DNA from: Pseudomonadota bacterium
GTDB taxonomy: Bacteria; Myxococcota_A; UBA796; UBA2385
Reading direction: 5' to 3'
DNA: 33,129 nucleotides
Assembly (NCBI GenBank): GCA_046051725.1
Contig: JBJONS010000031.1
Coordinates: forward strand, 1-33,129
Within the stretch, counting starts at the first letter, position 1. Each line of letters begins with the position of its first letter. This document shows, piece after piece, positions 5,115 to 29,724 of this stretch. Position numbers and translations under genes: made by a program. The notes below the pieces were generated by a model, which saw only the letters and a program-made list of their open reading frames with translations, had not been told where the DNA came from and made no database searches.

Positions 5115-5884
5115 CTGTGACGCGGCTCTCCACCCTGGCCCTGGCCCTGGCGGCCGCCTGCGCGCTGCTCTGGGCCGGCCCGGCCTCCGCCTCCACCGAG
5201 CTGGCCCCCGGCCGCTACGGGATGGAGCTGGTGGTGGCCACCTTCGCCCGGGTGCCGGTGCTCGGCGAGAGCCGCGGCAGCAGCGTGAGCCTGCTGCTCG
5301 TCGATCTCGCAGAGGGGCCCGATGGCCAGCTGCGCGCCACCCAGCAGGTCTGCACCGTCGAGATGCGCGGGGCCGGAGAGCGCGCCCAGATGCGCCTCAG
5401 CGACGGTTTTTTGCGCGCGCAGGGCAAAAAGAGCTGGACGGTGCGCCTCGCCGAAGACGGCGCGATGGTCGCTGATCTCGGCGTGGACCACGTCGGCTTC
5501 GCGCCCAGCGGCCGCGACAGCCCGGTGCCCAAGCGGGCCACCGACCCGGGCGTGATCGACTGGGACAAGGACGGCCGCCCCGGCGCCACGATCCTGCTGC
5601 GGGCCCCGGTCCTGGGCGATGTCGAGCTCTACGTCGCCCAGCGCGCCCATGTGCGCCTGCGGGGCCGCGCGCTGCCCGAGGGCGGGGCCGAGGGCGCGGT
5701 CGAGGTGCTGCGCTTTGAGCAGCACACCATCGGCAGCAGCCACCGCCTCTTCGACACCTCTCCCGAGATGTGGCCCGACCCGGGCGCGAGCGGCTTCGCG
5801 CTCTGGCCGGCGCCGCCGGGCACAGGGTGCGGAGGGCTTCGGGCGGCCCGCTGCGGCGGCGACACCGGGAGCTGCAGCCGCTGA
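5111..5884 (+). CDS. Secreted hypothetical protein, beta-rich, with a DWDKDGRPG motif
   Basis: Signal peptide (RLSTLALALAAACALLWAGPASA). GTGA overlap with the crtD stop. GC3-biased codons. Cys-containing C-terminus. Confidence 0.75.
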   Translation: MTVTRLSTLALALAAACALLWAGPASASTELAPGRYGMELVVATFARVPVLGESRGSSVSLLLVDLAEGPDGQLRATQQVCTVEMRGAGERAQMRLSDGFLRAQGKKSWTVRLAEDGAMVADLGVDHVGFAPSGRDSPVPKRATDPGVIDWDKDGRPGATILLRAPVLGDVELYVAQRAHVRLRGRALPEGGAEGAVEVLRFEQHTIGSSHRLFDTSPEMWPDPGASGFALWPAPPGTGCGGLRAARCGGDTGSCSR

Positions 5885-5914
5885 CCACGCCGATGACCAC
5901 GCTGAAGACCACGC
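5883..5914 (+). repeat. Three copies of GACCACGC with a 12-bp period
   Basis: Copies start at 5883, 5895 and 5907. Confidence 0.8.
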
Positions 5915-5957
5915 AGACCCGGGTGCGAGGCGCTGCGATGGACCCCACGTCTCGGCT

Positions 5958-5966
5958 TGCTATGCT
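5958..5966 (+). promoter_or_regulatory. Putative extended -10 promoter of the kinase gene
   Basis: TG-C-TATGCT about 25 nt upstream of ATG 5991. A possible -35 (TGGACC) lies at 5939-5944. Confidence 0.45.
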
Positions 5967-5990
5967 GGGCGCCCACCTTGGAGCTCGCCC

Positions 5991-8606
5991 ATGACCGCGC
6001 CGGAGCACGACAGCCTGTCGAGCACGGGCGGCGGTCCCACCGCGACGGTCGAGCTCGACACCGGCGGTGTCCAGCAGGTCGAGCCCAGCGCCGCCCCGCC
6101 CTCGGGCGCCCCGGTCGGGCTGCCCGCCCGGTACACGGTGCACGACCGCATCGGCGAGGGCGGCACCTGCGAGGTCTTCCTCGCCGAGGACCGCGAGCTC
6201 GACCGCGTGGTCGCCATCAAGGTGCTGCGGGTCGGCCGGGCGGCGCAGGCCGAGGCGGTCCGCATGCGCTTCTTGGCCGAGGCCCAGGTGACGGCGCGGC
6301 TGCCCCACCCGGGGGTCATCCCGGTCTATGGGCGGGGCGAGCTGCACGACGGCCGGCCGTGGTTCGCGATGAAGTTCGTGCGCGGGCCCACCTTCGGCGA
6401 CGTGATCCGCGAGCTGCACGCCCGCTCGCGCCCGGCGGAGTGGTCCCCGACCTCGACCGGCTGGACGTTTTGGCGCCTCGTCGACGCGCTCGCCCGCTGC
6501 TGCGAGACCATCGCCTACGCCCACAGCGTCAGCGTGATGCACCGCGACCTCAAGCCCAGCAACATCATGCTCGGGCAGTTCGGCGAGGCGCTGGTGATGG
6601 ACTGGGGCCTCGCCAAGCTCGTCGAGGCCGAGGGCCTGCCCACCGCACGGGGGGCGCGGGCGGCCGAGGGCGCGACCCAAGACCTGCTGCTGCAGGCGCT
6701 GCCCCCGCGCCGGGGCGCAGAGGCGGGCAGCCTCAGCCCGCAGACCCACGAGGCCGACAGCCGCCGCACCCACTTCGGCGCTGTGGTGGGCACCCCGCAG
6801 TACATGGCCCCCGAGGTCGCCGCGGGCGGGAGCGCCAACTGCAGCGCCAGGGTCGACATCTACGGGCTCGGCACCCTGCTCTACGAGCTGCTCAGCGGCC
6901 ACGCGCCTTTTCCCACCGACGGGGCGACGGCGGTGGTCCACCTGCGGACCGGCGCCGCGCCCGCGCCGGTCCGGGCCCTGCTCCAGACCCACCCGCGCGT
7001 CCCTGAGGCGCTGGTCGAGGTCTGCGAGCGGGCGATGCACCGCGACCCCTGCGCCCGCTACGAGGACGCCGCCGCGCTCGGCGCCGCGATCCGCGCGTGG
7101 CTCGACGGCTCGGTGCGCCTGCGCCAAGCCCTCGCCATGGTGGATGAGGCCCGCTCCCGCGGGGACCGCGCCGCCGCCGTCGCCGTCCGCGCCGAGGGGC
7201 TGCGCCAAGCGGCGCGCCGCATGCTCGAGGGCGTGCGCGACTTTGACCCGGTCGAGCGCAAGGTCGAGGCCTGGGCGGCTGAGGATGAGGCCCTGGTCCT
7301 CGACTTGGAGGCGGCCGAGCTGCGGGCCGCGATGCTCGAGCGGGCCCGCTCTGCGCTGTCCTTGGTGCCCGAGCTGCGCGAGGCCCACGACCTGCTCGCC
7401 GCGCACCACGCCGAGCAGCTGCTGGCCGCCGAGGCCCAGGGCGACGGCGGCGCCGCGATCCTCCACGAGCAGGCGCTGCGGCAGCATGATCGCGGCCCCT
7501 ACGCCCGCCTGCTCGCCGGCGAGGCCGAGCTCACCCTGCGGACCGACCCGCCCGGCGCACGGGTCGAGGCCGCCCGGCTGGTGCGCAGCCTGCGCCGCAT
7601 CGTCGAGGAGCCGGTCGGCCCCATCGGGCGCGCCGACGATGGCCCGCTGCGGCTGCACCGGGGCACCTTCCTCTTGAGCGTCCGCGCGCCGGGCTGCGCG
7701 CCGGTCCAGCTCCACGTGCGGCTGCAGCGCTCCGAGCGCTGGGCGCTGCGGCCGCCCGGCGCCGACACAGACCAGATCCTCCGCCTGCCCCGGGCCGATG
7801 AGCTGGGCCCCGACGAGGTCTGGATCCCCCCGGGCTGGTTTGACGCCGGCGGAGACCCCCAAGCGGTCGACAGCCTGCCCGCCGCCCGGGTCTGGGTCGA
7901 CGGCTTCGTCATCGAGCGCGACGCGGTCACCAACGCCCGCTGGCTCGCCTATGTCAACGCGCTGGTCGATGAAGGCGCCTTCGAGCAGGCGCGGGCCGCG
8001 GTCCCCCGGCGCCCCACCGGCGAGGGCGGCGGCCCGGCCTGGCCGCAGGGCCCCGACGGCCACTACAGCCTCCCCGACAGCGGCGCGGGCGCCGACATCG
8101 GGTGGCGCCTCCAGGCGCCGGTGGTGCGGATCTCCTTCGAGGTCGCCCAAGCCTGGTGCCGCTGGACCTCCGTCCGCGAGGGGCTGCCCTGGCGCTTGCC
8201 CCACGAGCTCGAGTGGGAGAAGGCGGCGCGCGGGGTCGACGGGCGCACCTTCCCCTGGGGTGACCACGTCGACGGCACCTGGGCCTGCACCGCCAGCGCC
8301 CACGCCGACGCCAGCGCCATCGCCGAGGTGGGCGCCTACCCCGCCGACCGCAGCCCCTGGGGCCTGCGGGACATGGGCGGCAACGCCCAGTGCTGGTGCG
8401 ACACGCCCTGGTCCTTCGAGGGGCACGGGATCGGCGCGGACGGTCGCCTGCGGCTCGGCGCCGAGGCCGACGGCGACCCCCGCCGCATCATCCGCGGCGG
8501 GGCCTGGAACCAGTCGGCCCAGACCGGCCGCTGCGCCGCCCGCCTCGTGAGCCCCCCCGACCAGTGGTGGAGCGCCGTGGGCGTGCGGCGGGTCCGCAGC
8601 CTCTGA
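5991..8606 (+). CDS. Hanks-type Ser/Thr protein kinase fused to a helical region, a PEGA-like domain and a C-terminal FGE-sulfatase (SUMF1) domain
   Basis: Kinase motifs GEGGTCEV, VAIK, HRDLKPSN, DWG and GTPQYMAPE. PEGA-like LTLRTDPPGARV. FGE motifs RLPHELEWEKAARG, FPWG, SPWGLRDMGGN and RGGAW. GGAG RBS before ATG 5991. Confidence 0.92.
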   Translation: MTAPEHDSLSSTGGGPTATVELDTGGVQQVEPSAAPPSGAPVGLPARYTVHDRIGEGGTCEVFLAEDRELDRVVAIKVLRVGRAAQAEAVRMRFLAEAQVTARLPHPGVIPVYGRGELHDGRPWFAMKFVRGPTFGDVIRELHARSRPAEWSPTSTGWTFWRLVDALARCCETIAYAHSVSVMHRDLKPSNIMLGQFGEALVMDWGLAKLVEAEGLPTARGARAAEGATQDLLLQALPPRRGAEAGSLSPQTHEADSRRTHFGAVVGTPQYMAPEVAAGGSANCSARVDIYGLGTLLYELLSGHAPFPTDGATAVVHLRTGAAPAPVRALLQTHPRVPEALVEVCERAMHRDPCARYEDAAALGAAIRAWLDGSVRLRQALAMVDEARSRGDRAAAVAVRAEGLRQAARRMLEGVRDFDPVERKVEAWAAEDEALVLDLEAAELRAAMLERARSALSLVPELREAHDLLAAHHAEQLLAAEAQGDGGAAILHEQALRQHDRGPYARLLAGEAELTLRTDPPGARVEAARLVRSLRRIVEEPVGPIGRADDGPLRLHRGTFLLSVRAPGCAPVQLHVRLQRSERWALRPPGADTDQILRLPRADELGPDEVWIPPGWFDAGGDPQAVDSLPAARVWVDGFVIERDAVTNARWLAYVNALVDEGAFEQARAAVPRRPTGEGGGPAWPQGPDGHYSLPDSGAGADIGWRLQAPVVRISFEVAQAWCRWTSVREGLPWRLPHELEWEKAARGVDGRTFPWGDHVDGTWACTASAHADASAIAEVGAYPADRSPWGLRDMGGNAQCWCDTPWSFEGHGIGADGRLRLGAEADGDPRRIIRGGAWNQSAQTGRCAARLVSPPDQWWSAVGVRRVRSL

Positions 8607-8619
8607 GGCCGTGTCCGGC

Positions 8620-10441
8620 TCAGCTCGGGCTGGACACGTGGGTGTACCAGCGCTGGGGCAGCTGGGCGGACACGAAGCTGGTGAGCTTGGTGAGCACGAG
8701 CTCGCCGGCGGCGACCGTGGCCGGACCGGTGAAGTAGCCGCTGTTGCTCGGATCGGCGGGGTTGGGCGCCGAGGGCGCGCGCCAGAACCAGCCCTGCGAG
8801 GCCATGGTGCTCGCGGTGTTGCCGGTGCCGAACACGATCTGCAGCCCGCGGTTGATCAGCCCGCCGCCCACGTTGGTGCCGCACAGCATCGAGAAGCCGG
8901 TGCCGACGACCTGGGGCTGCGCGGCGCCGGCGCCGTAGCTGGTCGCGACCGGGGTCGTGAATTTGAGGCCGTAGGGCTGGAAGGTGTTCTGGAGCCAATT
9001 GGCGAGCGCGACGCTGTTCTCGTCAAGGCTGCCCATCAACCGCATACGCAGCCGCTGGTTGTACCGGGACTGGTCATTCCAGACGGTCTGCGCGGCGGCC
9101 CAGGCGACGGGGTCGGTGCGCCAGTGCTCGGTGCCCGCCTTGTACAGCACCCCATTGGCGAGAACATCGACCTCGGGGTTGAAGAGGTAGCCGACCTTCG
9201 ACCAGGTGATCGCGCCGCCCGAGCTGGCGGCGCTGCCGATCTCGATCTCCCACCGGGGGTACTTGGGGATCGGCAGCTGCTGGTTCGCCTTCGCCTGCAC
9301 GTCGGGCGCCAGGGCGGCCAGGGCCGAGGTGCGCAGCCCCTCATCGGCGATCGGCCCGAGCAGGCAGCTCTGGTCCACCTCGCGCGGGCCGGCGACCAGC
9401 GGCCGCTGATCGAGGCCGAGCGCGTCGAGCAGGGCGCGGGCCCGCAGGTGCAGCTCGTCGTGGGTGATCGTGGCGAAGACCTGCCCGAGGCCGGTGTCTT
9501 GGGTCTGCCAGCGGGACAGCACCGTCTGCAGGGCCCAGCTCCACGCGCCCTGGGGGCGGCCGTTGAGGTCGGCGGTGTAGCAGGTGTGGTTGACATCGCA
9601 GGAGAGCAGGCCCCGGCCGGCCGCCCCGATGGCCTTGGCCAGGGCGCCGTCGACCCGGTCGGCGATGGTCGCGTCGGCGGCGACCGGGGTGGCGAAGCAC
9701 GCGTCGATGACCACCGTGAGGTCATCGACCCAGAGGGCGTCCCCGCGCAGCTCGGGATCGATGGTCGGGGCGGGCGCGCCCGGGATGCCCGCGGCGAGGC
9801 CCCCGAGGCGCTCGCCGATCTCGGCGCGCAGCTCGCCGGCCCAGCGCGGCAGGGCCCGGCTGATCACCGGGGCGCCTGCCTCGTCGAAGCGCCCGCCCTG
9901 GGCCGGGGTGTCACCCGTCGGGGGCGGCGCTTGCTCGGGGCCGTCGCCCGCCGCGCCCGGCTTGGACGTGCCCGGGGCGAGCCGGTGCAGGGGGGTGGCG
10001 CCGACCAGCTCGATCAGGCCGTCGCCCGAGAAGTAGGAGGCGTACTCTTTCGGGGTCGCCCGCACGTGGTCGGCGCCGGCGAACAGGAACTGGGAGAGGT
10101 CGGCCTGGGCGGCGTTGGCGCCCGAGAGCAGCGCCTCGGCGGCGACGCCGTGGCCGGAGAAGGTCAGCAGCTTCTGGCCGCGCCACGCCATCAGCCAGTC
10201 GACGCTGGCGCTGATGTTGGCGCCCGTCGCCTGCGCCCGCGGGGTGGCGCGGGCGAGCGCGAGGAGGTCGTCGCGCAGCGCGTCGTCGGGCCGGGCCACC
10301 GCCTCGACCAGATCGAGGGCCCCGAGCCGGGGGCTGGTCAGCAGGCGGATGTTCTGCGGGTGCACGCCGAGCCGCCCCACCGCGTAGTGCCACCAGGCGA
10401 TCGCGTCGTGAAGAAGAGAGGGCAGCGACGCTCTGGCTCAA
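8620..10441 (-). pseudogene. Caspase-family (clan CD, C14-like) protein with an unknown C-terminal domain; 5' end apparently frameshifted or deleted
   Basis: HDAIAWW...PQNIRLLTS, ATGANI, LLTFSGHG (His), VVIDAC (Cys), LLSCD and GAWSWAL motifs. The likely start (AGGAG + TTG at 10441, MSQSVAAL) is out of frame with the body, and the body frame has a TGA at 10440-10438. It could still be expressed from GTG 10380. Confidence 0.7.
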
Positions 10442-10587
10442 GGGGGCTCCTGCTCGGCTTGGCGCCACGGGGGCGCCCGCTCCCTGGGGGGAGCGCGGGG
10501 CTGCGGGGCGCGACCACGCGCCTCGCACGCCGCTTTAGCCGGTCGCTTCCGCGGCCGCAGGCGACTGCACCCCCCTGGGGAGCGCGC

Positions 10588-13191
10588 TCAGCCGCCGCAG
10601 CGCTGGCCGAGCAGGCGCAGGCGGGTGTTCACGTCCCGCAGCAGCTCGGGGCGCTTGCCGCCCAGCTCGCGGGCCTTGCAGTAGGACTGCAGCGCCAGCT
10701 CTTTGTTGTCGCTGAGCTCTGCGACAAAACCCACCCCGTACCAGGCGTCGGGGTTGGCCGGCCGCTCGCGCACCGCCGCGTCGAAGGCCTCGCGGGCGCC
10801 CCGCAGGTCGTGGGCCTCGATGTCGGCCCAGCCCTGGCGGAGCAGATCCCCGACGGTGCGCTTGCCGCCCGGCGGCGGCGCGGGGATGGGCGCCGGCGCC
10901 GGAGGCGGCGCGGCCACGGCCAGCACAGGCACAGGCATAGGATCAGCGGCAGCGACGGCGTCTTCGCCGACCGGACCGCCGAGGGGCTCAGCCGCGGGCC
11001 GCGCGGCTGCCGGGGCGGGCGCCGCCGGTGCGGCCGCCGCGGCGCCCAGCTCGACGGGGGCGGTCGCGGCCGGCGCATCGACCGCAGGGGGAGCCATCGG
11101 GGTGGCGGGCGGCGGGGCGGCGGCCGCAGCGGGGGAGGCCTGCAGGGCCTCGAGCTCGAGCTCGGGCGCGCCCTCGATCGCCGCGGGGCCGCGGCCGGGG
11201 GCGGGCACGCCGAGCAGCCAGGCCAGGGCGCAGGCGGCGGCCAGGGCGAGGCTGCTCGCGAACAGCGCCGGGGAGACCTTTCCGCCGCGGGCCTCGGCGG
11301 GGTCATGCCCGGTGACGCTGAGGTGCAGGTAGCGGGTCACCTCGCGAAAGCCGGGGTTGACGCTGACCACGTAGGCGAAGCGCTCGCGGGCCCGCTCACG
11401 CTCACCGCGGTGCAGGGCCGCCACGCCCTCTTCGTAGGCGTTGGCCAGCCGCGCGGTGTGCTCGAGGCGCTCGATGTCGGCGCTCCACACGCTGTGGCGG
11501 CGGGCGATGTGCAGGGCGCCGGCGTAGTCCGAGCGGGCCTCGTGGGCGGCCTGCTCGCGCCGCTCGTCTTCGAGGTGCCGGGCCCGCAGCGCCTGCTTCA
11601 CCGGCGAGGTCTCGGTCGGCTGGTCGCTGGCGGTGGCGGCCTCGTGCGCGGCGGCGAGGTCGCCCGCGGCGAGCGCCGCTGCGCCCCGATCCTCGAGCAG
11701 GCGGTTGCGCAGGCGCTTGGCCTCGGACTGCTCGGGAGCGACCTCGAGCACGCGGTTGTAGAGCTGCAGCCGCCGCTCGGCGTCGGGGGCCTCGGCGGCC
11801 AGATCGAGCAGCGCGCGGGTGAGGTAGGGGCCCGCCCGCCCCGGGCGCAGCGGGTGGAGCCGCTCGAGGAAGGGCACCGCCGCCGCGAGCTCGCCGTCGC
11901 GCAGGTGGATGGCCGCGAGCATCTCGAGCGCGCCGGTGTGGTCGGGGTGCACCGCCAGCACCGCCCGCACCGCGTCGGCGGCCTCACGGCGCACGCCGGG
12001 GCCCCGGGCGGCCTGCCAGCGCATGGCCGCGGCCCGGTAGCGCTCGTCGGCCTGGGGCAGCAGACCGTCCAGCTCGCCGAAGATGTCGTCGAGCGGCAGG
12101 CCGGCCCGCACCCAGGTCCGCAGCAGGGGCACGGTCGGGCGCAGCACCGCGGGATCGGCGTCCAGCACGTCTTGCCGGCGCAGCTCGCGCGGACCATCCT
12201 CGAGCAGCTCGCGCCCCACGCCGCGCAAGCCGCGGGCCCGCAGCAGATCGCCGAGCTCGGCCGCCCCGCAGGCCCCGCGGTCGCTCCAGGCGAGCACGCC
12301 GAGCACGAGGCGGGCCGCCGGGGGCAGCCCCGACCAGACCGCCAAAAAGTGCCCCGACAGGGCGTCGAGCGCAGGCGCGACCGCCGCGTGCACCATCGCG
12401 GCGGTGGCGGTGGGGGCCACCCGGCCCGGGGCGCTGCAGGCCTTGTCCCAGATGACCTCGCAGAGGGCCTGGGTGACCGCGGGGTGGCAGCCGCTGCGCT
12501 CGAGCAGGGCGTCGACCGCCTCGTTGGTCCACATCAGGCTGCGGTCGACCTGGGAGAGGCGCACCAGCGACCAGGCCTGGGCCAGCTCGAGCGGGCCGAC
12601 CGCGCGGCGCAGGGGGCTCGGCAGGTGCTTGCGCAGCGCGGCCTCGGCGCCGGCGCTGCGCAGATCGTAGGCCACGACCACCGCGAGGCGGGCGGCGTGG
12701 CGCTCGAGCAGGCCGCCGACCAGCGGGAGGAGGGCGCCCGCCGTGGTGCGGCTGCGCGCGTCGTCGACCACCGGGAAGGCGTCGATGAGCAGCACGAGGC
12801 GCTCGCCCTCGCCGAGCCGGGCCAGCGCGGCGGGCAGCCACTGGCCGCACAGCTGATCTTCGGGCCAGGCGCCGCGCGCGGGGGCGTCCACCCCCAAGGC
12901 GCCCGCGATCTGCCCGGCCAGGGCCACCAGGGCGTCGTCGACCGCCGCGCCCGCAAAGGGCGCGGGATCGAAGCGGGCGGCGCGCAGGCCGCCGCTCTCG
13001 CTGAGCTGCACGCGCAGCTCGTCGAGCAGCGAGGTCTTGCCGCTGCCCGGCCCGCCGCCGACGATCACCGCCGCGCGCTCGGGACGCCGCAGGGCGAGGC
13101 TCAGCTCGCCGAGGAGCTCGGCCCGGCCGACGAAGGCGGCGGAGTCTCCGACGCTGCCGCTGGAGCGGTAGGGGTTCTGCGGCGACGGCAT
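10588..13191 (-). CDS. STAND-like P-loop ATPase with winged helix, TPR repeats, one TM helix, a Pro/Ala linker and a C-terminal TPR domain
   Basis: N-terminal NPY..G.V....FVGR motif, Walker A GGPGSGKTS, Walker B LVLLIDAF, SGCHP (GxP motif) and VPLLRTWV. TPR-like helices follow, then TM segment ALFASSLALAAACALAWLLGV and the C-terminal TPR AREAFDAAVRERPANPDAWYGVG. Confidence 0.85.
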   Translation of the reverse strand: MPSPQNPYRSSGSVGDSAAFVGRAELLGELSLALRRPERAAVIVGGGPGSGKTSLLDELRVQLSESGGLRAARFDPAPFAGAAVDDALVALAGQIAGALGVDAPARGAWPEDQLCGQWLPAALARLGEGERLVLLIDAFPVVDDARSRTTAGALLPLVGGLLERHAARLAVVVAYDLRSAGAEAALRKHLPSPLRRAVGPLELAQAWSLVRLSQVDRSLMWTNEAVDALLERSGCHPAVTQALCEVIWDKACSAPGRVAPTATAAMVHAAVAPALDALSGHFLAVWSGLPPAARLVLGVLAWSDRGACGAAELGDLLRARGLRGVGRELLEDGPRELRRQDVLDADPAVLRPTVPLLRTWVRAGLPLDDIFGELDGLLPQADERYRAAAMRWQAARGPGVRREAADAVRAVLAVHPDHTGALEMLAAIHLRDGELAAAVPFLERLHPLRPGRAGPYLTRALLDLAAEAPDAERRLQLYNRVLEVAPEQSEAKRLRNRLLEDRGAAALAAGDLAAAHEAATASDQPTETSPVKQALRARHLEDERREQAAHEARSDYAGALHIARRHSVWSADIERLEHTARLANAYEEGVAALHRGERERARERFAYVVSVNPGFREVTRYLHLSVTGHDPAEARGGKVSPALFASSLALAAACALAWLLGVPAPGRGPAAIEGAPELELEALQASPAAAAAPPPATPMAPPAVDAPAATAPVELGAAAAAPAAPAPAAARPAAEPLGGPVGEDAVAAADPMPVPVLAVAAPPPAPAPIPAPPPGGKRTVGDLLRQGWADIEAHDLRGAREAFDAAVRERPANPDAWYGVGFVAELSDNKELALQSYCKARELGGKRPELLRDVNTRLRLLGQRCGG

Positions 13192-13351
13192 GGCGGGCCT
13201 GGGGCGGGGAGCCGGAGGAGGGCCGGCCGAGGCCGGCGGGGTCTTCGGCGCGTCCTGGCCGCGGATCGGCGGTCTCGGCGCGACGGTGCCCCGATACCAC
13301 GGACCGGCGCCGCCGTGCCCCCCCCCGGACATTCCCGGATGCGCTGGGCGA

Positions 13352-14470
13352 TCAGGCGGGCTTGCGTGCGCGCTTCTCCATCCGCTTGCGCAGCTTGTCC
13401 ATGGTCTTGCCGAGGCCCAGCGCCTTGCGCACCTCGCGCATGGTCTGGGTGGCGAGCCGCTGCATGGCCAAGGTGCCCTCCCACAGCACGTCGTCGAGCA
13501 GATCGGGCTGCGTCGCGTAGTGGGCCCGCCGCTCCCACAGGGGCTCCATGAAGGTGACCATGGCGGTCAGCAGGCGATCCTTGACCTCGCCATCCCCGAC
13601 CGTGCCCGCCGCGTAGCGGGCGGCCAGCTCGTCGACCTCGGCCTGATCGGGGTTGAAGATCCGGTGGTACTCAAAAACCGGGTTGCCCTCGACCGTGCCG
13701 GGCACGTCGGCGTGCACCCGGTTGGGGTCGGTGTACATCTTGCGGATCTTCTTCTCGAGCGCCTTGCGGTCATCGCTGAGCAGGATGCTGTTGCCCGCCG
13801 ACTTGCTCATCTTGCCCTTGCCGTCGGTGCCCACCAGCGCCCGCTCGACGCCGAGCAGCGGCGCGGGCTCGACGAAGACCTCGCCATAGGTCTGGTTGAA
13901 GCGGCGGGCGATCTCGCGGGTGATCTCGACCTGGGCGAGGTTGTCGGGCCCGACCGGCACGATGTGGGCCTTGGGCAGCAGGATGTCGGCCGCCTGCAGC
14001 ACCGGGTAGCCCAACAGGCCGTAGGGGATGCTCTCTTCGTCGAGGTTGGCGTTCTTGGCCATCTCTTTGAGGGCCGGCAGCCGCGACAGCCGGTTGACCG
14101 TCACGAAGTTCTGCAGCAGCGTGTTGAGCTCGTAGACCTCGGGGATGGCCGACTGCAGGTAGATCTTGGCGTGGTTCGGGTCCATGCCGGCGGCCAAGTA
14201 GTCGAGCAAGATCGAGCGCACGTTGTCGCCGATCTCTTGGATGTCGGCCGGGCTGCGCTTGGTCGTCAACATGTGCAGGTCGGCGATCAAGATGTAGGTG
14301 TCGTACTCGGTCTGCAGCTTGACCCGGTTCTGGATGCTGCCGACGAGGTGCCCGAGGTGGAGCTGGCCGGTCGGCCGGTCGCCGGTCAGCAGGCGCTTGA
14401 CCCCTCCGGCTGCGCCCGCCGCCTTGACCTCACCCTGCTGCACGCCCTCTTGCTCCGTCTGGCCGCTCAT
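13352..14470 (-). CDS. trpS: Tryptophan--tRNA ligase
   Basis: TGDRPTGQLHLGH (HIGH), GYPVLQAADIL, VPVGPDN and KMSKS. GGAGG RBS before ATG 14470. Confidence 0.97.
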   Translation of the reverse strand: MSGQTEQEGVQQGEVKAAGAAGGVKRLLTGDRPTGQLHLGHLVGSIQNRVKLQTEYDTYILIADLHMLTTKRSPADIQEIGDNVRSILLDYLAAGMDPNHAKIYLQSAIPEVYELNTLLQNFVTVNRLSRLPALKEMAKNANLDEESIPYGLLGYPVLQAADILLPKAHIVPVGPDNLAQVEITREIARRFNQTYGEVFVEPAPLLGVERALVGTDGKGKMSKSAGNSILLSDDRKALEKKIRKMYTDPNRVHADVPGTVEGNPVFEYHRIFNPDQAEVDELAARYAAGTVGDGEVKDRLLTAMVTFMEPLWERRAHYATQPDLLDDVLWEGTLAMQRLATQTMREVRKALGLGKTMDKLRKRMEKRARKPA

Positions 14471-14610
14471 CTCGCCTCCCCTGTGGACCCGCGCCGGGGC
14501 CCCGCACCGGCGACCGTTAGCACAGGCCCGGCGGGGCCGCCCGGCGGAGGGCTGGGGTAGGCTCCGACCGGCGCCGGGGAGAAGGGACCACCCGGGCGCA
14601 CGGGGCGCCG

Positions 14611-15555
14611 ATGACCGACAGCTCACCGGGGACGTTTCGCGAAGACATCGACGCGATGCTGATCTTCCACGAGATCGTGCTGCAGGGCAGCTACTCTGCC
14701 GCCGCGGCGCGCTTCGGCCTCACCCGCAGCGCGGTCAGCAAGCGGGTCTCGCGCCTCGAAGAGCGCCTCGGCCTGCGCCTGCTGCACCGCACCACCCGCC
14801 AGGTGGCGGCGACCGAGGCCGGGCTGCGCTTCCACGCCCACTGCGCCCGCCTGCTCGCCATCCTCGACGAGGCCGAGGCCGACATGGGCAGCCTCGCCCA
14901 AGAGCCGGTCGGCACCGTCCGCATCAACGCGCCCGTGGTCTTCGGCGAGTACTACCTCGCCGAGCCCTTGGCCGAGTTTCAGGGCCGCCACCCCCGGGTG
15001 CGGGTCCAGCTCACGCTCAGCGACCACCGCTCGGACCCCGTCGCGCTGGGCCTCGACCTCGTGGTGCGGGTCGGGCCGGTCTTCGACGACTCGCTGGTCG
15101 CCCGGCAGCTGCTGCGGGCCCGGGTCGTGACCTGCGCGAGCCCCGGCTACCTCGCCAAGGCCGGCACGCCGGCCCACCCCGCCGAGCTCGTGCGGCACCG
15201 CTGCCTGCGCTACCTCAACCTGCCCGAAGAGCGCGAGTGGTCCTATGTGGTCGACGGTGAGATCCAGGCCCCGGTCGGCAGCTGCCCGCTCGAGACCGAC
15301 TCGGGCCTCGCCCTGCGCGGCGCCGCCCTCGCCGGCATGGGCCTCGCCCACCTGCCGAGCTTCTACGTCGAGCACGACCTGCGGCACGGCACCTTGGTGC
15401 AGGTGCTCGGCGAGTTCGAGCTGCCCGACATCTCGGCCTACCTCGTCTACGTCAGCCGCAAGCACCAGCCCGCCGCGGTCCGGGCGCTGATGCAGTTCTT
15501 GCTCGACTGGTTCGCCGCCCACCCGCTGGCGCCGGTGCAGGGCTGCGCGGGCTGA
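14611..15555 (+). CDS. LysR-family transcriptional regulator (CrgA-like substrate-binding domain)
   Basis: GSYSAAAARFGLTRSAVSKRVSRLEERLGLRLLHRTTR HTH, ASPGYL..GTP.HP.EL..H.CL and GMGLAHLPSF. Confidence 0.95.
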   Translation: MTDSSPGTFREDIDAMLIFHEIVLQGSYSAAAARFGLTRSAVSKRVSRLEERLGLRLLHRTTRQVAATEAGLRFHAHCARLLAILDEAEADMGSLAQEPVGTVRINAPVVFGEYYLAEPLAEFQGRHPRVRVQLTLSDHRSDPVALGLDLVVRVGPVFDDSLVARQLLRARVVTCASPGYLAKAGTPAHPAELVRHRCLRYLNLPEEREWSYVVDGEIQAPVGSCPLETDSGLALRGAALAGMGLAHLPSFYVEHDLRHGTLVQVLGEFELPDISAYLVYVSRKHQPAAVRALMQFLLDWFAAHPLAPVQGCAG

Positions 15556-17150: not shown

Positions 17151-17765
17151 GTGTCCGCTGCTCCCCCCGCTCTTCCCGCCCCTTTCGTCGTGATCCTCGC
17201 GGGCGGCACCGCCAGCGGCAAGACCACCGTGGCGGCCCGGGCCGCCGCCCAGCTCGGCGCGCTGCTGCTGCACCACGACCGCTACTACCGCGACGTCGAG
17301 CAGCCCCGCGGCCACAACTACGACCACCCCGACGCGCTGGACACCGCGCGCCTCGTCGCCGACCTCGACGCGCTGCGGGCCGGCCGCCCGGCCGCGCTGC
17401 CGGTCTACGACTTCCGCACCCACCGCCGGCAGCCCGAGAGCGAGCACGTCGAGCCCACCCCAGTGATCCTGGTCGAGGGCATCCTCACGCTCGCCGACGC
17501 CGCGCTGGCCCGCCGCGCCGACCTGCGGGTCTTTGTCGACGCCCCGGCCGACGTGCGCCTCGCCCGGCGGGTGCGCCGCGACGTGGCCGAGCGCGGCCGC
17601 GAGGTGGGCGGCGTGCTCGACCAGTACCTCGACACGGTGCGGCCGATGCACGAGGCCTTCGTCGAGCCGACCAAGGCCAGCGCCGACCTCGTGATCAACG
17701 GCACCGCGCCGATCCCCGCGCTGGTCGACAGCCTCGTGGCGGCGATCGCCGAGCGGCGCCGCTAG
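17151..17765 (+). CDS. udk: Uridine kinase
   Basis: GGTASGKTT, NYDHPDALD, PVYDF, VEGIL, RRVRRDV.ERGR and VRPMHEAFVEPTK. GTG start after GGAGG. Confidence 0.93.
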   Translation: MSAAPPALPAPFVVILAGGTASGKTTVAARAAAQLGALLLHHDRYYRDVEQPRGHNYDHPDALDTARLVADLDALRAGRPAALPVYDFRTHRRQPESEHVEPTPVILVEGILTLADAALARRADLRVFVDAPADVRLARRVRRDVAERGREVGGVLDQYLDTVRPMHEAFVEPTKASADLVINGTAPIPALVDSLVAAIAERRR

Positions 17766-19543
17766 CCGCCGGCCAGGGTCAGGTTCTGGCGGCAGCTCGC
17801 CGCCTCGTCACCCTGCAGCGCCGGGCAGGTCGCCTGCAGCAGGCGCCGGGCCTCGTCGGCCCGTCCGGCCTTGAGCAGGCGGGCCCCGACCAGCGCCCGG
17901 GCCGCCGGCGGCGCGGTGGGGGCCGCGGCGAGCCGGCGGGCGTCATCGAGGGCGCCCGCGTCGAGCGCCAGCGTGACCGCCAGCGTGTGCAGCGGCCCGA
18001 CGGCCTCGGGCGGCGGCGCGGCGGCCCCGGGCGCGCCGGGCAGGGCGGGGGCGAGCACGGTCCAGGCCCGGGCCCCCTCGCCGGCGGCGCGCAGCAGCAG
18101 GGCGTGGTTGTAGGCGGTGACCGGCTGGGCGGCGCTGAGCGCGGCCCCGCCCTCGTCCCACCACGCGTCGGCCAGCGGGGCGGCGCCCTGGCGCACCGCG
18201 CAGCCCCAGCCGAGGCGCAGCAGGGCCGGGTGCACGGCGGCGGGCGGGCCGAGGGCGGCGCTGCAGCCCGCCGGATCGCCCGCGGTGTCGCGCGCGGCGG
18301 CCCAGCGCAGCAGGCCGGGTCCAGCGCTCTCGCGCAGCCCCGAGATCACGCTGTCGGGCAGCCCGCCCAGCGCGATGCCCACGTCGACGATGACGCCCTG
18401 CACGTCATAGTCGGTGGATGTGCTCAGGCGCTCGACCAGGGCCAGGGCCTCGGCCCGCTGGCCCAGCGCGGCGAGGCGGCGGGCGCGGGCGGCGTTGAGC
18501 AGCTCGACCTCGGGGTGGCGGGGCAGGGCCTTGGCCTCGACCACGCTGGCCTTGTCGAGCTCGCCCCGCTGCACGTGCAGCAGCACGAGGTGGGCCGAGG
18601 CGATGCCGCGCAGCTCTTCGGCCTTGGCCGCGTCGGACGCCCGCACCACGCCCGAGATCGCCCCGCTGCGGTGCACCACCAGCCAGTCTTCGGCCTCGAT
18701 CGCCGCGCGCAGGTCGTCGATCGCCCCGCTCGTGTTGCCCACCCGGGCCCGGGCGATGCCCCGCAGGGCCCGGGCGTCGCCGCGGGTCGGCCGGGCCGCG
18801 ACCACCGGGTCGAGCAGCAGCAGGGCGCCCGCCGGGTCGCCGGCGTTGACGCGGGCGAGGGCCTCTTGGACCTGCTTGAGCTCGGCCTCGGCGCTCTGGT
18901 CGGCGTTGAGCGGCATCCAGCCGATGAGCTCGGGGCCGGCGGCGGCGCAGCGGTCGGCCAGGGCCGGATCGACCCGGGCCCGCAGCTCTTGGAGCACCGC
19001 GACCTCCATGCAGGCGCCGACGGGGGCAGGCAGCCGCTCGACCGCCTGGGCGGCGAGGCGCTGGGCGGCATCGCCCTCGCCCAAGCGCAGCAAGGCCTGC
19101 AAAAGAGCGGCGTGCGCGGCGATGTCGTCGGGGGCCAGCTTGAGCGCCTCTTCGGCGGCGACCCGGGCCCCCGCCGCGTTCTGGCGCACGAAGCGGGCGC
19201 TGCTGAGCAAGGTGTGGGCCTCGGCCTTCTTGGGCCAGGCCGCGGTGAGGCCGCGGGCCAGGGCCTCGGCCTCGGCGAGGCGCCCGAGCCGCAGCAGCAC
19301 CATGCCCTTGCCGTGCAGCGCGCTGCCGCAGGTGGGGTCTTGGGCGAGCACCTCGTCGTAGGCGGTGAGCGCCAGCTCGAGCTGGCCGCGGGCCTGGGCG
19401 ACCACCGCCTCGCTGTAGCGGGCCGCGCCGCGCTCGCTGACCGCCCAGCCGGCCCAGGCGGCGCCGGGGGCCCAGAGCGCGCCGATCAGCGCGAGGAGGA
19501 GAGCGGGGGCGCGGCGGCCGCGCGGCGCGGGGGGGCGGTGCAT
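17762..19543 (-). CDS. Secreted tetratricopeptide-repeat protein
   Basis: GGAGG RBS and ATG 19543. Signal peptide (ALLLALIGALWAPGAAWA). Multiple TPR-like units (ALTAYDEVLAQDP..ALHGKGMVLLRLGR; ARALRGIARARVGN..GAIDDLRAAI). Confidence 0.85.
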   Translation of the reverse strand: MHRPPAPRGRRAPALLLALIGALWAPGAAWAGWAVSERGAARYSEAVVAQARGQLELALTAYDEVLAQDPTCGSALHGKGMVLLRLGRLAEAEALARGLTAAWPKKAEAHTLLSSARFVRQNAAGARVAAEEALKLAPDDIAAHAALLQALLRLGEGDAAQRLAAQAVERLPAPVGACMEVAVLQELRARVDPALADRCAAAGPELIGWMPLNADQSAEAELKQVQEALARVNAGDPAGALLLLDPVVAARPTRGDARALRGIARARVGNTSGAIDDLRAAIEAEDWLVVHRSGAISGVVRASDAAKAEELRGIASAHLVLLHVQRGELDKASVVEAKALPRHPEVELLNAARARRLAALGQRAEALALVERLSTSTDYDVQGVIVDVGIALGGLPDSVISGLRESAGPGLLRWAAARDTAGDPAGCSAALGPPAAVHPALLRLGWGCAVRQGAAPLADAWWDEGGAALSAAQPVTAYNHALLLRAAGEGARAWTVLAPALPGAPGAAAPPPEAVGPLHTLAVTLALDAGALDDARRLAAAPTAPPAARALVGARLLKAGRADEARRLLQATCPALQGDEAASCRQNLTLAGG

Positions 19544-19685
19544 GGGGTCCTCCGGAGGCGGGCGCTGGACCGTGGCGCAGGGGGCGCGGTTCCCGCGTCG
19601 GTTATCCTCCGCCGGGCCGGCGCCCGGCCGACGCCCCGGCCCTGCCCGCGCCCCGCCCAGCCCGCCCGCGCGCCGAGGCCCGACC

Positions 19686-21779
19686 ATGCCCGAGGGCCGC
19701 CGCACCCGCCCGAGCACCCTGCTGCAGCGCCTGCTCCGCGCGGCGCTGGTCCAGGGCCGCGGCGAGGCCCGCGCGATGGAAGAGGCGATCCACCTCGCCA
19801 GCGTGCTGCGCCTGATCGGCCTCTTCGTGGTCAGCATCGCCCTGCCCGCCACGCTGCTGTCGTACTTCGCCGTGCGGGCCGCCCGCGTCGAAGAGGCGCT
19901 GGTGGTCAATGATCTGCGCCGAGAGGGCGCGGTGGCCGCCGACACCTTCTGGGCCGGGCTCGACCGCGACTTCACCGGCTTTGAGCAGCGGGTGGTCGAC
20001 CGCCTGCGCTCGGGCCGCAGCCCGCTCGACGCGGCCGGCGAGCTGCACCCACAGCTGCGGGTGGCCCTGCGCTTTGACCAAGAGGGCAACCTGCGGGCGC
20101 CCTTTGTGGTGAACGACGCCGAGCAGCCCCTGCCCGAAGAGGACCTCTTCCACCCCGCCTGGCGGGCGGCCGAGCGCGCCGCGGCCGACGGGGCGCCGAC
20201 CGAGGTGCAGATCGCCCTGCTGCGCGCTGTCTTCGCCGAGCACAGCAGCCCGGTCGTGCGGGCCCGGGCCCAGCTCGACGAGGCCCGCCTGCGCCTCAAG
20301 CAGGGCCAGACCCGCGAGGCGATGGCCCTGCTCGACGCCGTGATCAGCCGCGGCGAGCCGGCCCGCGACCCCTACGGCCTGCGCCTCGCCGATCAGGCCC
20401 GCCTGATGCGCGCCGACGCCCTGCTGCAGCGGGACCCCGAGGCGGGGTCGCGGGCCCTGCGCACCCTGGTCGAAGAGCTGCTGTCCGAGAGCTGGACCGT
20501 GGGCCAGGGCGGCGAGGCCGCGCTGGCCGCCCGCGCGCTGAGCCTCGTGCCGCCCGGGGCGGCGGGCGACTGGGCGCCGGTCGCCCGCGGGCGCTTGGCC
20601 GAGCGCAGCTCGATGCTCTACTGGGCCGCCGCCCTGCTGCCCGAGCTCGACCCGGTCTTCGGCGCCACGCCTGGCCGGCTGCCCGACGGCGTGGTGCGGT
20701 GGGAGCTGAGCGACCGGGCGCTCTGGGCGACCACCTGGTGGGGCGACGACTACTACGCCTTCGGTCTCGACCTCGAGAACGTCCTCAGCGAGCTGCAAGC
20801 CGACGCGCGGGCTGCGGTGGTCGCCGACAGCGACGTGAGCGCCTACCTGCTGAGCCCCAACGAGAAGCCGCCCCAGGACGCGCTGACCAGCAAGAGCTTG
20901 GGCCCCTGGCTCGGCGGCTGGACGCTGGTGGTCGCCCTGCGCGACGCCGAGCGCCTCGAGGCCGAGCGGGCCGACCGCCGCGACCTGCGCGCGCTGATCG
21001 TCGGCTCGGCCCTCTTTGTGCTGCTGGCCGGCAGCTTTACGACCCTGGCCATGCTGCGCCGCGAGCTGCAGGTGGCCCGCCAGCAGACCGACTTCGCCGC
21101 CAGCGTGAGCCACGAGCTGCGCTCGCCGATCACGCACATCCGCAGCCAGGGCGAGGCCCTGCTCTACGGCCTCAAAGAGACCGACGAAGAGAAAGAAGAG
21201 GCCTTCCTCAGCATCGTGCGCGAGAGCGAGCGCCTGTCGCGCCTCGTCGACAACGTGCTCGACTTCGCGGCGATCGAGCGCGGGGCCAAGCGCTACGCCC
21301 TGCGCCCCGGCGACATCGCCGAGACGGTGATGAACGCCATCGACAGCATCAGCTCGGCCCAAGAGGTCCAAGACAAAGAGCTGGACGTCGATCTGCCCGC
21401 CGACCTGCCGCCGGTCGCCCACGACGCCGACGCGATCGCCCAGTGCGTCATCAACCTCGTGAGCAACGCCGCCAAGTACTCGCCGGCCGGCGGCTGGATC
21501 GGCGTGCGCGGCCGTGTCGTCGAAGGTGGCGTGCAGATCACCATCTCAGACAAGGGCATCGGGATCGCCGCCCACGACATGCAGCAGATCTTCGAGCCCT
21601 TCTTTCGCAGCCGCGACGCGATGGCCCGCAAGCGCAAGGGCACCGGCATCGGCCTGACCATCACCCGCTACATCATGAACGCCCACGGGGGCGAGGTGAC
21701 GGTGGCCTCGCGGCCGGGCCAGGGCAGCACCTTCACCCTGCGCTTCCCGAGCGAGGCCCCGCAGGCCCCGCGCCGCTGA
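19686..21779 (+). CDS. Membrane sensor histidine kinase (HisKA + HATPase_c) with a large extracytoplasmic domain
   Basis: Two TM segments, H-box SVSHELRSP, N-box NLVSNAAKYS, DKGIGI, IFEPFFR and GTGIGL. The start is uncertain (ATG 19686 or 19776). Confidence 0.93.
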   Translation: MPEGRRTRPSTLLQRLLRAALVQGRGEARAMEEAIHLASVLRLIGLFVVSIALPATLLSYFAVRAARVEEALVVNDLRREGAVAADTFWAGLDRDFTGFEQRVVDRLRSGRSPLDAAGELHPQLRVALRFDQEGNLRAPFVVNDAEQPLPEEDLFHPAWRAAERAAADGAPTEVQIALLRAVFAEHSSPVVRARAQLDEARLRLKQGQTREAMALLDAVISRGEPARDPYGLRLADQARLMRADALLQRDPEAGSRALRTLVEELLSESWTVGQGGEAALAARALSLVPPGAAGDWAPVARGRLAERSSMLYWAAALLPELDPVFGATPGRLPDGVVRWELSDRALWATTWWGDDYYAFGLDLENVLSELQADARAAVVADSDVSAYLLSPNEKPPQDALTSKSLGPWLGGWTLVVALRDAERLEAERADRRDLRALIVGSALFVLLAGSFTTLAMLRRELQVARQQTDFAASVSHELRSPITHIRSQGEALLYGLKETDEEKEEAFLSIVRESERLSRLVDNVLDFAAIERGAKRYALRPGDIAETVMNAIDSISSAQEVQDKELDVDLPADLPPVAHDADAIAQCVINLVSNAAKYSPAGGWIGVRGRVVEGGVQITISDKGIGIAAHDMQQIFEPFFRSRDAMARKRKGTGIGLTITRYIMNAHGGEVTVASRPGQGSTFTLRFPSEAPQAPRR

Positions 21780-23846: not shown

Positions 23847-24012
23847 GGGGGCTCCAGCGGCCACAGCGGGCCACACGACAGGTTGTGCGAAAAAGGGGCG
23901 CGCGCGCGGCGCCACCGGCGGTGGCTGCCCTAGGGACGGCCCCCCCCTCCGTCAAGGGCAGGGCCAAAGGCGGCCGGCAGGCCCCGGTCGGGGCGGCCCG
24001 CCCGAGCGCCCG

Positions 24013-24021
24013 TGCCATACT
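24013..24021 (+). promoter_or_regulatory. Putative extended -10 promoter of the S8 gene
   Basis: TG-C-CATACT about 33 nt upstream of ATG 24055. Confidence 0.35.
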
Positions 24022-24054
24022 GCGCGCGCCGATCCCCCCGACCCGAGACCTCCC

Positions 24055-29618: not shown

Positions 29619-29724
29619 TGCGTCTGATCGGGGCTCTGGGGGCCTGTCCCGAGGGCGACCCGTTGCGCGACCGCCGCCGGCCGCCGCGCAGAGGCGTTAG
29701 CGGGGCGTGGCTGGAGGCCCTCCG

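Follow-up and report, generated by a model that had tools for sequence, protein, structure and literature searches.

A membrane-anchored STAND-type NTPase gene and an adjacent, disrupted caspase-fold gene: a plausible two-gene signalling module of a high-GC Myxococcota-type lineage

Can a bacterial STAND-type NTPase without an effector domain act through a caspase-like protease encoded by the gene next to it? The question is raised by two minus-strand genes within positions 8620-13191 of a 33,129-nt stretch of DNA, the whole of which we call the window (contig JBJONS010000031.1 of assembly GCA_046051725.1, deposited as a Pseudomonadota bacterium and placed by GTDB in Myxococcota_A). The upstream gene, gene A, encodes an NTPase with tetratricopeptide repeats (TPR) and a predicted transmembrane (TM) helix, and the downstream one, gene B, a protein of caspase fold. 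An earlier note on this DNA had proposed that a receptor sensing on the far side of the membrane could activate the neighbouring protease in trans, in an apoptosome-like arrangement. We find that a coupled module is plausible but unproven and would be a variant of STAND and caspase pairings that have been predicted; in this copy the module is defective, with the STAND gene intact.

The window has a GC content of ~75%, which gives rise to long spurious open reading frames (ORFs) in all frames, so the true genes were resolved by codon-position GC. A single minus-strand frame fits the signal of GC at third codon positions (GC3) from ~8700 to 13200, and this supports exactly two real minus-strand genes in a common frame. 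They are co-oriented and separated by 146 nt, in agreement with the spacing of about 150 bp proposed earlier (Table 1). A wobble in GC3 at 10801-11100 is due to the Pro/Ala-rich linker of gene A. The ATG at 13191 was taken as the start of gene A; it is kept in L001, a syntenic locus from a metagenome-assembled genome labelled 'Deltaproteobacteria bacterium', and agrees with the predicted start in 6/6 homologues, all of which open with M-x4-N-P-Y. A longer version of 914 aa from ATG 13332 was rejected, as this ATG is absent in L001 and a 1-nt indel lies downstream. Gene B starts at TTG 10441, with an AGGAG box 5 nt ahead of it.

Gene A has features of a STAND-type nucleotide switch. Pfam assigned to its product AAA_16 (34.6 bits, cut-off 32.6) and TPR_16. 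AAA_16 recurred in all six members of the family, next to ATPase_2 and nSTAND6 (three members each), nSTAND1 and nSTAND3 (two each) and, weakly, NACHT (two). The best nSTAND1 match in the family reached E 3.5e-7; among the nSTAND and NACHT models, the window protein itself matched NACHT alone (E 0.091). Of the 27 Pfam models that matched members of the family, the 25 listed include none of the NB-ARC/AP-ATPase type. STAND proteins are said, after Leipe et al. 2004, to be defined by a P-loop core, helical and winged-helix domains with a GxP-type motif, and C-terminal repeats. In gene A we found the P-loop core, with a Walker A of the form GxxxxGK[ST] and a Walker B of the form hhhhD, as well as C-terminal superstructure-forming repeats (TPR at aa 379-627 and aa 780-861). 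An alignment of the six homologues showed N6-P7-Y8, FVGR, the P-loop glycines and G234/H236/P237 to be invariant; the last three belong to a motif, GGHP..TQ.LC, which stands behind the NTPase within modelled helices (residues 203-253). Only 19 residues precede FVGR, and the protein thus opens directly with the NPY/FVGR motifs and leaves the N-terminal effector position empty, as had been noticed before.

The AlphaFold2 (AF2) model of gene A, built on a six-row alignment, has a mean predicted local distance difference test score (pLDDT) of 67.9. The alpha/beta NTPase (aa 24-200) and the helical domain are well modelled, a long helix occupies aa 641-660, aa 661-779 are disordered, and a confident five-helix TPR domain covers aa 780-861. 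The order ATPase, winged helix, TPR, TM and TPR proposed in the earlier note is borne out by Pfam, AF2 and hydropathy in every part except the winged helix, which holds only partly: the stretch in question (aa 279-374) has a pLDDT of <50. The maximum of Kyte-Doolittle hydropathy over 19 residues is 2.11, and the TM helix is the sole segment to reach at least 1.6. It is flanked by R/K/H residues on its N-terminal side and by acidic ones on its C-terminal side. Since, in addition, the ATPase must be cytoplasmic, the predicted topology is N-in, and the linker and terminal TPR domain would therefore be extracytoplasmic. Ala or Pro makes up 58/90 of the linker residues sampled, and the size of the linker varies between homologues. 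Cys838 and Cys865 of the terminal TPR domain are invariant in the six homologues and would fit an oxidising compartment.

A structural search of the PDB returned a STAND-TPR protein, 6mfv, as the best match of the gene A model (E 3.1e-6, probability 1.00). ORC/Cdc6 and RFC followed nearly equal, and Avs3 (rank 45) and the wheat resistosome stood lower. A PDB profile search with the gene A family gave TPR proteins and weak ClpB P-loop matches alone.

The product of gene B matched no family directly, whether in Pfam (E<=10) or in NCBIfam and PADLOC (E<=0.01), and its sequence matches in the PDB were at chance level; the closest relatives P0015-P0018 had no match to Peptidase_C14 (PF00656) either. 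We used the natural intact relative P0001 for the alignment, fold and structure work. Full-length relatives (P0001-P0005 and L001) have 578-630 aa and begin MSQSVAALSSSARVVI(I/V)GVRDYDKPW...GALHDAIAWW. A profile of this clade (6 members) found 252 proteins at E<=1e-3, 97 of them at E<=1e-10, among 1.84 billion representatives. The gathering score of PF00656 was passed by 23/31 scanned relatives, and the eight that failed include the four closest; membership of gene B in Peptidase C14 is transitive only. In an alignment of 64 sequences G120-H121-G122, D270 and C272 are invariant. The corresponding codons of the window are at 10150-10152 (His of SGHG) and 9697-9699 (Cys of DACF). His121 and Cys272 form the conserved dyad of this putative protease.

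The AF2 model of P0001 (pLDDT 80.2, predicted template modelling score 0.66) has the caspase strand beta1 from residue 13, and Foldseek matched it with probability 1.00 to Arabidopsis metacaspases 9 and 4, MALT1, Yca1 and caspases 1, 3, 7, 8 and 9, as well as to giant-virus caspases in BFVD. A language-model atlas placed gene B among Peptidase_C14 clusters. The His-Cys caspase fold seen in the earlier note was confirmed by this model together with the invariant dyad. Between the His and Cys strands the clade carries ~100 extra, partly disordered residues, whereas the wider-family consensus has ~50. Gene B has no signal peptide or TM segment and its product should therefore be cytoplasmic, like the NTPase of gene A. 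An adaptor domain is absent from both proteins: no more than 19 residues stand before FVGR, beta1 begins at residue 13, and no extra Pfam domain was found.

In the window, gene B is broken. A DNA alignment showed that 71 nt are absent at the junction 10411|10410 in comparison to L001 and to the 99%-identical P0001, and the gene measures 1822 nt vs 1893 nt in intact relatives; the remark of the earlier note about a 'repaired caspase' was thus to the point. The deletion removes strand beta1 (ARVVIIGVRDY...), which is central in the caspase sheet, and shifts the frame, so that the gene reads MSQSVAALSSS and then continues out of frame to HDAIAWW. Translation from TTG 10441 yields 11 correct residues and then 165 out of frame. 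From GTG 10380 down to 8620 the frame stays open. Because this frame is otherwise intact, the lesion is either recent or an artefact of the assembly or of a variant. That the organism carries an intact protease gene, the gap having arisen in assembly or consensus calling or belonging to a minority variant, seems to us rather unlikely, although it deserves attention. It would agree with the 586 codons that stay open downstream at a GC3 of 0.96 and 99% identity to intact P0001, and with the location of P0001 on the same contig as a STAND protein 99.8-100% identical to that of the window. However, a clean loss of 71 nt inside unique coding sequence is atypical of assembler error, and the window copy differs from P0001 at several residues and its STAND protein at ~2, which points to a distinct strain.

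We compared rates of evolution across the locus between the window and L001. Neighbouring genes have identities of 84-98%, ratios of nonsynonymous to synonymous rates (dN/dS) of 0.05-0.36 and dS of 0.14-0.28, and the structured STAND domains are similar (90-96%, dN/dS 0.09-0.23, dS 0.20-0.33). The protease is 64% identical overall. Its caspase core reaches 79-88% (dN/dS ~0.30, dS 0.31-0.49), while its C-terminal beta-rich domain is only 47.4-47.9% identical, with a dN/dS of 0.88 (dN 0.48, dS 0.55). No other gene of the block thus evolves nearly as fast as gene B, and nothing else in the locus is as unusual as the contrast in its C-terminal domain. The same contrast was seen against P0003 and P0004 and, more weakly, against P0002. 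Since the aromatic core motifs WFWRA and WYTH remain invariant in this domain, simple decay is a less likely reason for its divergence. The cause could be diversifying selection, an exchange of alleles that had already diverged, or a relaxation of constraint. Such C-terminal divergence is typical of recognition or conflict components and hints at a role of that kind. The domain (~215 aa) found no usable match in the atlas and no confident structural match; LolA and reovirus sigma1 were rejected as its identity, at Foldseek probabilities <=0.33.

Are the two genes regularly found together? For each family only six clusters were found among 5.8 billion proteins, and a second search with the STAND alignment added none. 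The same alignment found two loci among genome contigs, L001 and L002. In L001 the STAND protein is 91% identical to that of the window and is directly followed by an intact protease gene; here synteny with the window extends over the full 22 kb, the encoded proteins being 84-98% identical. L002 holds a 35%-identical STAND homologue (P0012); downstream of it lie a two-component pair and an MscS gene in convergent orientation, and upstream an HExxH protein. This last, at 6173-8395 (+) of L002, has 740 aa, a HELGH metalloprotease motif, a hydrophobic C-terminal tail and no Pfam match. The L002 contig has 62% GC and repeats of the Chlamydia PMP type, and its label 'Enterobacterales' is doubtful.

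Equal contig sizes extend the picture. The protease P0001 and the STAND protein P0007 probably share one contig (16963 nt), and so do P0005 and P0010 (11343 nt), with 54% identity to the window protease and 52% to the window STAND protein, respectively; by this shared size, co-location would persist at comparable divergence of both proteins (~52-54% identity). Among seven STAND lineages, then, the protease gene is adjacent in two (window and L001), probably on the same contig in two (one of them the window's own lineage) and absent in one (L002); the other three are P0008, P0009 and P0011. The recurrent ATPase-caspase pairing that the earlier note suggested looking for is therefore real in L001 and probable for the two contig pairs, but it does not extend to L002. 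On PLSDB plasmids, tblastn with P0001, the STAND protein and P0018 gave no match, and P0030 one partial match to a Pseudanabaena 'caspase family protein', which is too distant to be used.

These observations lead us to a reading that we favour, though at somewhat less than an even chance: A and B are a coupled pair, a signalling module of two genes that is restricted to one high-GC lineage of the Deltaproteobacteria/Myxococcota type and inherited vertically. Their linkage is supported by the shared strand, the 146-nt gap, the ribosome-binding site of gene B and the adjacency in both the window and L001. Gene A would be an inner-membrane-anchored nucleotide switch of the STAND type and gene B a cytoplasmic orthocaspase-like cysteine protease. 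A signal, picked up either through the arm that spans the periplasm or through the cytoplasmic TPR array of gene A, would lead to nucleotide-dependent oligomerisation of the membrane-tethered STAND protein; the oligomer may then concentrate the separately encoded protease at the inner membrane and activate it by induced proximity. The variable C-terminal domain of the protease might pick the substrate or a ligand, and the output could be proteolytic signalling or cell suicide. An antiphage or abortive-infection role is possible, but none of the searches gave support for it.

A bolder form of this proposal, which we consider a long shot, is a trans-envelope 'membrane NLR'. The Pro/Ala arm and a disulfide-stabilised TPR tip would here reach across the periplasm and signal what happens at the envelope (e.g., phage attachment or entry, kin contact, outer-membrane damage), assembly at the membrane would activate an adaptor-less orthocaspase, and the hypervariable domain would set its target or allotype. 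To our knowledge, all characterised bacterial STAND or NLR-like receptors respond to ligands in the cytosol and combine receptor and effector in one chain. If the coupling is true, NLR-type signalling would extend to the cell envelope and the locus would be a compact two-gene test case for recruitment of a caspase fold without Death-fold adaptors. If it is false, what is left is a pair of rare genes confined to the lineage, of which one is decaying. The membrane-spanning STAND protein and the hypervariable protease domain are the parts worth following.

A number of observations weigh against coupling. The protease gene is broken in the window, and apoptosome-like activation cannot operate here as written unless the deletion is an artefact; the idea of coupling in trans is thus backed by the domain calls and the pairing, but not by any adaptor domain nor by a working protease in this copy. 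Genes A and B differ widely in evolutionary rate, and the STAND protein is near-identical and intact where the protease is broken, so it may work without the protease. L001 is not independent evidence for pairing, because the entire locus is syntenic with the window. Within 10 kb of the STAND gene of L002 no caspase-like gene was found (tblastn, and 11 ORFs by Pfam), and for P0008, P0009 and P0011 (contigs of 11.7-15.3 kb) the search returned no caspase cluster of matching contig size, a search that misses relatives at 40% identity (P0015 surfaced only in the clade profile search). The longest of the 150 best gene B relatives has 794 aa (range 206-794), so none of them is a STAND-caspase fusion. 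The Walker A lysine (window ~13033-13056) is replaced by arginine in 4/6 STAND clusters (P0008, P0009, P0011, P0012), which suggests that robust ATPase activity is no constant of the family; the lineages with the lysine are exactly those with a protease partner, in a small sample only a lead. Stable GC-rich hairpins lie in the spacer, and co-transcription of A and B is putative.

The genomic context weighs in the same direction. The neighbourhood is housekeeping or ordinary regulatory and not a defence island, and neither protein matched a catalogued defence system in PADLOC-DB 2.0 at E<=0.01. The intact relatives gave only short, P-loop-local matches in PADLOC (E>=3.6e-4). A predicted complex of STAND residues 1-612 and caspase-like residues 1-385, run without controls, scored 0.00 and 0.01 vs a mark of 0.32 and counts neither way.

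The regions around gene A were assessed for signals of its expression. About 130 nt upstream of gene A, within the region between the trpS stop and its start, are ~95% identical to L001, above nearby synonymous sites. This region is presumed to hold gene A's own promoter or leader, possibly a non-canonical promoter: a promoter scan found no sigma-70 consensus in it, and a search of 8300-13700 no Rfam match. The spacer between A and B contains GC-rich hairpins without a T-run, and blocks of it are conserved in L001. Its fold is no better than that of shuffled sequences (z -1.08), and it has no terminator-like or promoter-like site and, in the same 8300-13700 search, no Rfam match. The scan gave three terminator-like sites, all within gene A, and no promoter-like site. 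A GC-rich palindrome without a T-run (GCGCTCCC...GGGAGCG) lies at 10470-10500 of the window and at about 12730-12760 of L001; it could be a terminator, an attenuator or a repeat element.

The strongest competitor of the coupled pair holds that nothing but inherited synteny keeps the genes side by side, gene A being a membrane-tethered STAND/TPR scaffold or switch in some envelope process and gene B an independent orthocaspase that this strain can afford to lose. We consider this a less likely account, but a serious one. It would explain why the whole block is syntenic with L001 and the protease is lacking in L002, why the STAND domains are 90-96% identical vs 47-88% for gene B, and why gene B is broken where gene A is intact. 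It would also agree with the conserved 5' region that gene A has for itself, and with the lack of an adaptor domain and of any fused form among the listed relatives. However, both families are extremely rare and yet co-occur in every lineage that can be assessed for both, bar the most distant. In the case of P0005/P0010 co-location, as judged from equal contig sizes, holds at ~52-54% identity, where unselected synteny has usually decayed. Moreover, STAND and caspase genes are a recurrent pairing in the literature, as far as the accessible parts of the papers go (PMC8195603, PMC7159879, PMC13581612).

A third account adds to the pair the convergent gene beyond gene B, which encodes a fusion of a Ser/Thr kinase (Pfam Pkinase, 2.3e-34) and an FGE-sulfatase domain (FGS; 8.2e-33) and would serve as a ligand sensor or co-effector with the STAND-TPR protein and the caspase. 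Its stop lies 13 nt from that of gene B, an arrangement kept in L001, and with 84% identity and a dN/dS of 0.36 it is the next most divergent gene after gene B. The available text of one survey describes NPCBM-kinase fusions beside AP-ATPase-TPR and caspase genes and treats FGS as functionally comparable to NPCBM (PMC8195603), and another, in its accessible part, places FGE-sulfatase-like domains among STAND sensors (PMC13581612). We nevertheless think a three-gene system improbable. A convergent gene shares no transcript with the pair, the arrangement is confirmed only in the syntenic L001 (L002 has no such gene), and kinase-FGE fusions seem common in this genome type, which makes chance adjacency plausible. 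The PADLOC matches of the kinase (PD-T4-6, mad6) were rejected, since they cover the generic kinase domain only. The protein has no TM segment (maximum hydropathy 0.93) and is thus cytoplasmic. Gasdermin-type, TIR/CBASS-type and defence-island readings can be dismissed, as the Pfam-scanned flanking ORFs contain no gasdermin gene and the Pfam matches of the scanned window ORFs no TIR or cyclase domain.

How would the coupled pair compare with known systems? Its proposed logic, in which a STAND protein oligomerises on a ligand signal and switches on a caspase-fold protease in trans, is that of the Apaf-1/caspase-9 apoptosome. The apoptosome works through a CARD-CARD adaptor and WD40 repeats. In contrast, the present pair has no such adaptor, carries TPR rather than WD40, is membrane-anchored and is known from sequence alone. 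As for the protease, it shares with orthocaspases and metacaspases (Peptidase C14, e.g., Arabidopsis MC9 and MC4, and Yca1) the fold, the SGHG and D-x-C motifs and the His-Cys dyad, but differs from them in the lack of a direct PF00656 match, in the ~100-aa insertion between His and Cys and in the extra C-terminal domain of ~215 aa. Members specific for Arg/Lys typically have an acidic D-A-C context, and type II metacaspases have a long linker after the Cys. Caspase-like effectors activated by TIR or CBASS signals have reportedly been described by Rousset et al. in 2025. The best structural match of gene A, the PH0952-type archaeal STAND-TPR protein (6mfv), resembles it in joining NTPase and TPR; however, the TM-scores are 0.19 and 0.24, the identity is 14%, and the matched chain has no TM or extracytoplasmic domain. 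We know of no caspase partner of 6mfv.

The closest parallels are predicted bacterial neighbourhoods. Kaur et al. in 2020 (PMC7159879) and Kaur, Iyer, Burroughs and Aravind in 2021 (PMC8195603) predicted in silico, in the portions available, that separately encoded caspases are linked to STAND(AP-ATPase)-TPR genes, in the latter work sometimes with lectin-fold-kinase genes. Our locus resembles these, as described there, in the adjacency of a STAND-TPR protein and a caspase-superfamily peptidase, in the bacterium's 'multicellular' lineage, in the kinase-FGS gene next door and in having one fast-diversifying component. It differs in that no Death-like or EAD adaptor is present on either protein, the NTPase is AAA_16 with weak nSTAND1/3/6 affinity and not a recognised AP-ATPase, the STAND protein is membrane-anchored with an extracytoplasmic TPR domain, and the context is chromosomal, housekeeping and apparently vertical, not mobile. 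A 2026 survey, in its accessible part, describes bacterial orthologues of Apaf-1 that have a caspase-like protease fused at the N-terminus, alongside FGE-sulfatase-like domains in STAND sensors (PMC13581612). These Apaf-1-like proteins and the antiviral STAND proteins of the Avs type, as far as that text covers them, resemble our pair in that the NTPase is joined to a TPR-like sensor and the output may be caspase-like proteolysis. Unlike gene A, Avs proteins are soluble and have NTPase and effector in one polypeptide; our STAND protein carries nothing at the effector position, the protease has a gene of its own, and PADLOC gave no Avs or NACHT match. In the full-text literature searched (supplementary tables outside its scope), a STAND architecture with a TM helix and a periplasmic TPR domain was not found.

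Table 1. Coordinates of the features discussed, in window numbering (aa, residues of the gene product)
Feature	Positions	Strand	Evidence
Gene A, 867-aa effector-less STAND-type (AAA_16) NTPase-TPR-TM-linker-TPR protein	10588..13191 (stop 10588-10590 included)	-	GC3, Pfam, alignment, AF2
Gene A, nucleotide-binding domain, aa 20-200	12592..13134	-	Walker A GGPGSGKT (aa 46-53), Walker B RLVLLID, pLDDT 74-91
Gene A, cytoplasmic TPR-like helical array, aa 379-627	11311..12057	-	AF2 helix pairs (pLDDT ~86-93), weak Pfam TPR_19 and TPR_CcmH, PDB profile matches to OGT TPR
Gene A, single TM helix, aa 640-663, predicted N-in	11203..11274	-	hydropathy, flank charges, present in 6/6 homologues
Gene A, Pro/Ala-rich low-complexity linker, aa 664-779, presumed periplasmic	10855..11202	-	composition, pLDDT ~30
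Gene A, C-terminal small TPR domain, aa 780-867, presumed periplasmic	10591..10854	-	Pfam TPR_16 (2.7e-8), pLDDT 87-95, many PDB TPR matches
Gene B, caspase-like (orthocaspase/metacaspase-fold) gene, disrupted	8620..10441	-	homologues, DNA alignment to L001, AF2 of P0001
Gene B, fast-evolving C-terminal beta-rich domain (P0001 residues 415-630)	8623..9270 (L001 about 14030-14675)	-	AF2 strands, pLDDT 72-93
Spacer between genes A and B, 146 nt	10442..10587	-	sequence and alignment to L001
Region from trpS stop to gene A start, 160 nt	13192..13351	-	alignment to L001
trpS	13352-14626	-	Pfam
Ser/Thr kinase-FGE-sulfatase (FGS, lectin-fold) fusion, convergent with gene B	5619..8606	+	Pfam

The flanks further out contain genes for a LysR regulator, CorA, uridine kinase, a TPR protein, a histidine kinase, HtpG, a subtilase-FG-GAP protein and a Na/H exchanger. 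In the kinase-FGS ORF the first ~124 residues are poorly conserved in L001, and the real start is probably later. A second, stand-alone gene with an FGE-sulfatase domain was found 20 kb off, at 29701-30714 (+), and a large subtilase (Peptidase_S8) fused to FG-GAP repeats occupies 23785-27450 (+). The stop-to-stop frames of the TPR protein (17762-20371, -) and the histidine kinase (19419-21779, +) overlap by ~950 nt; codon-position GC puts the 5' end of the TPR gene near 19500 and the start of the kinase near 19700.

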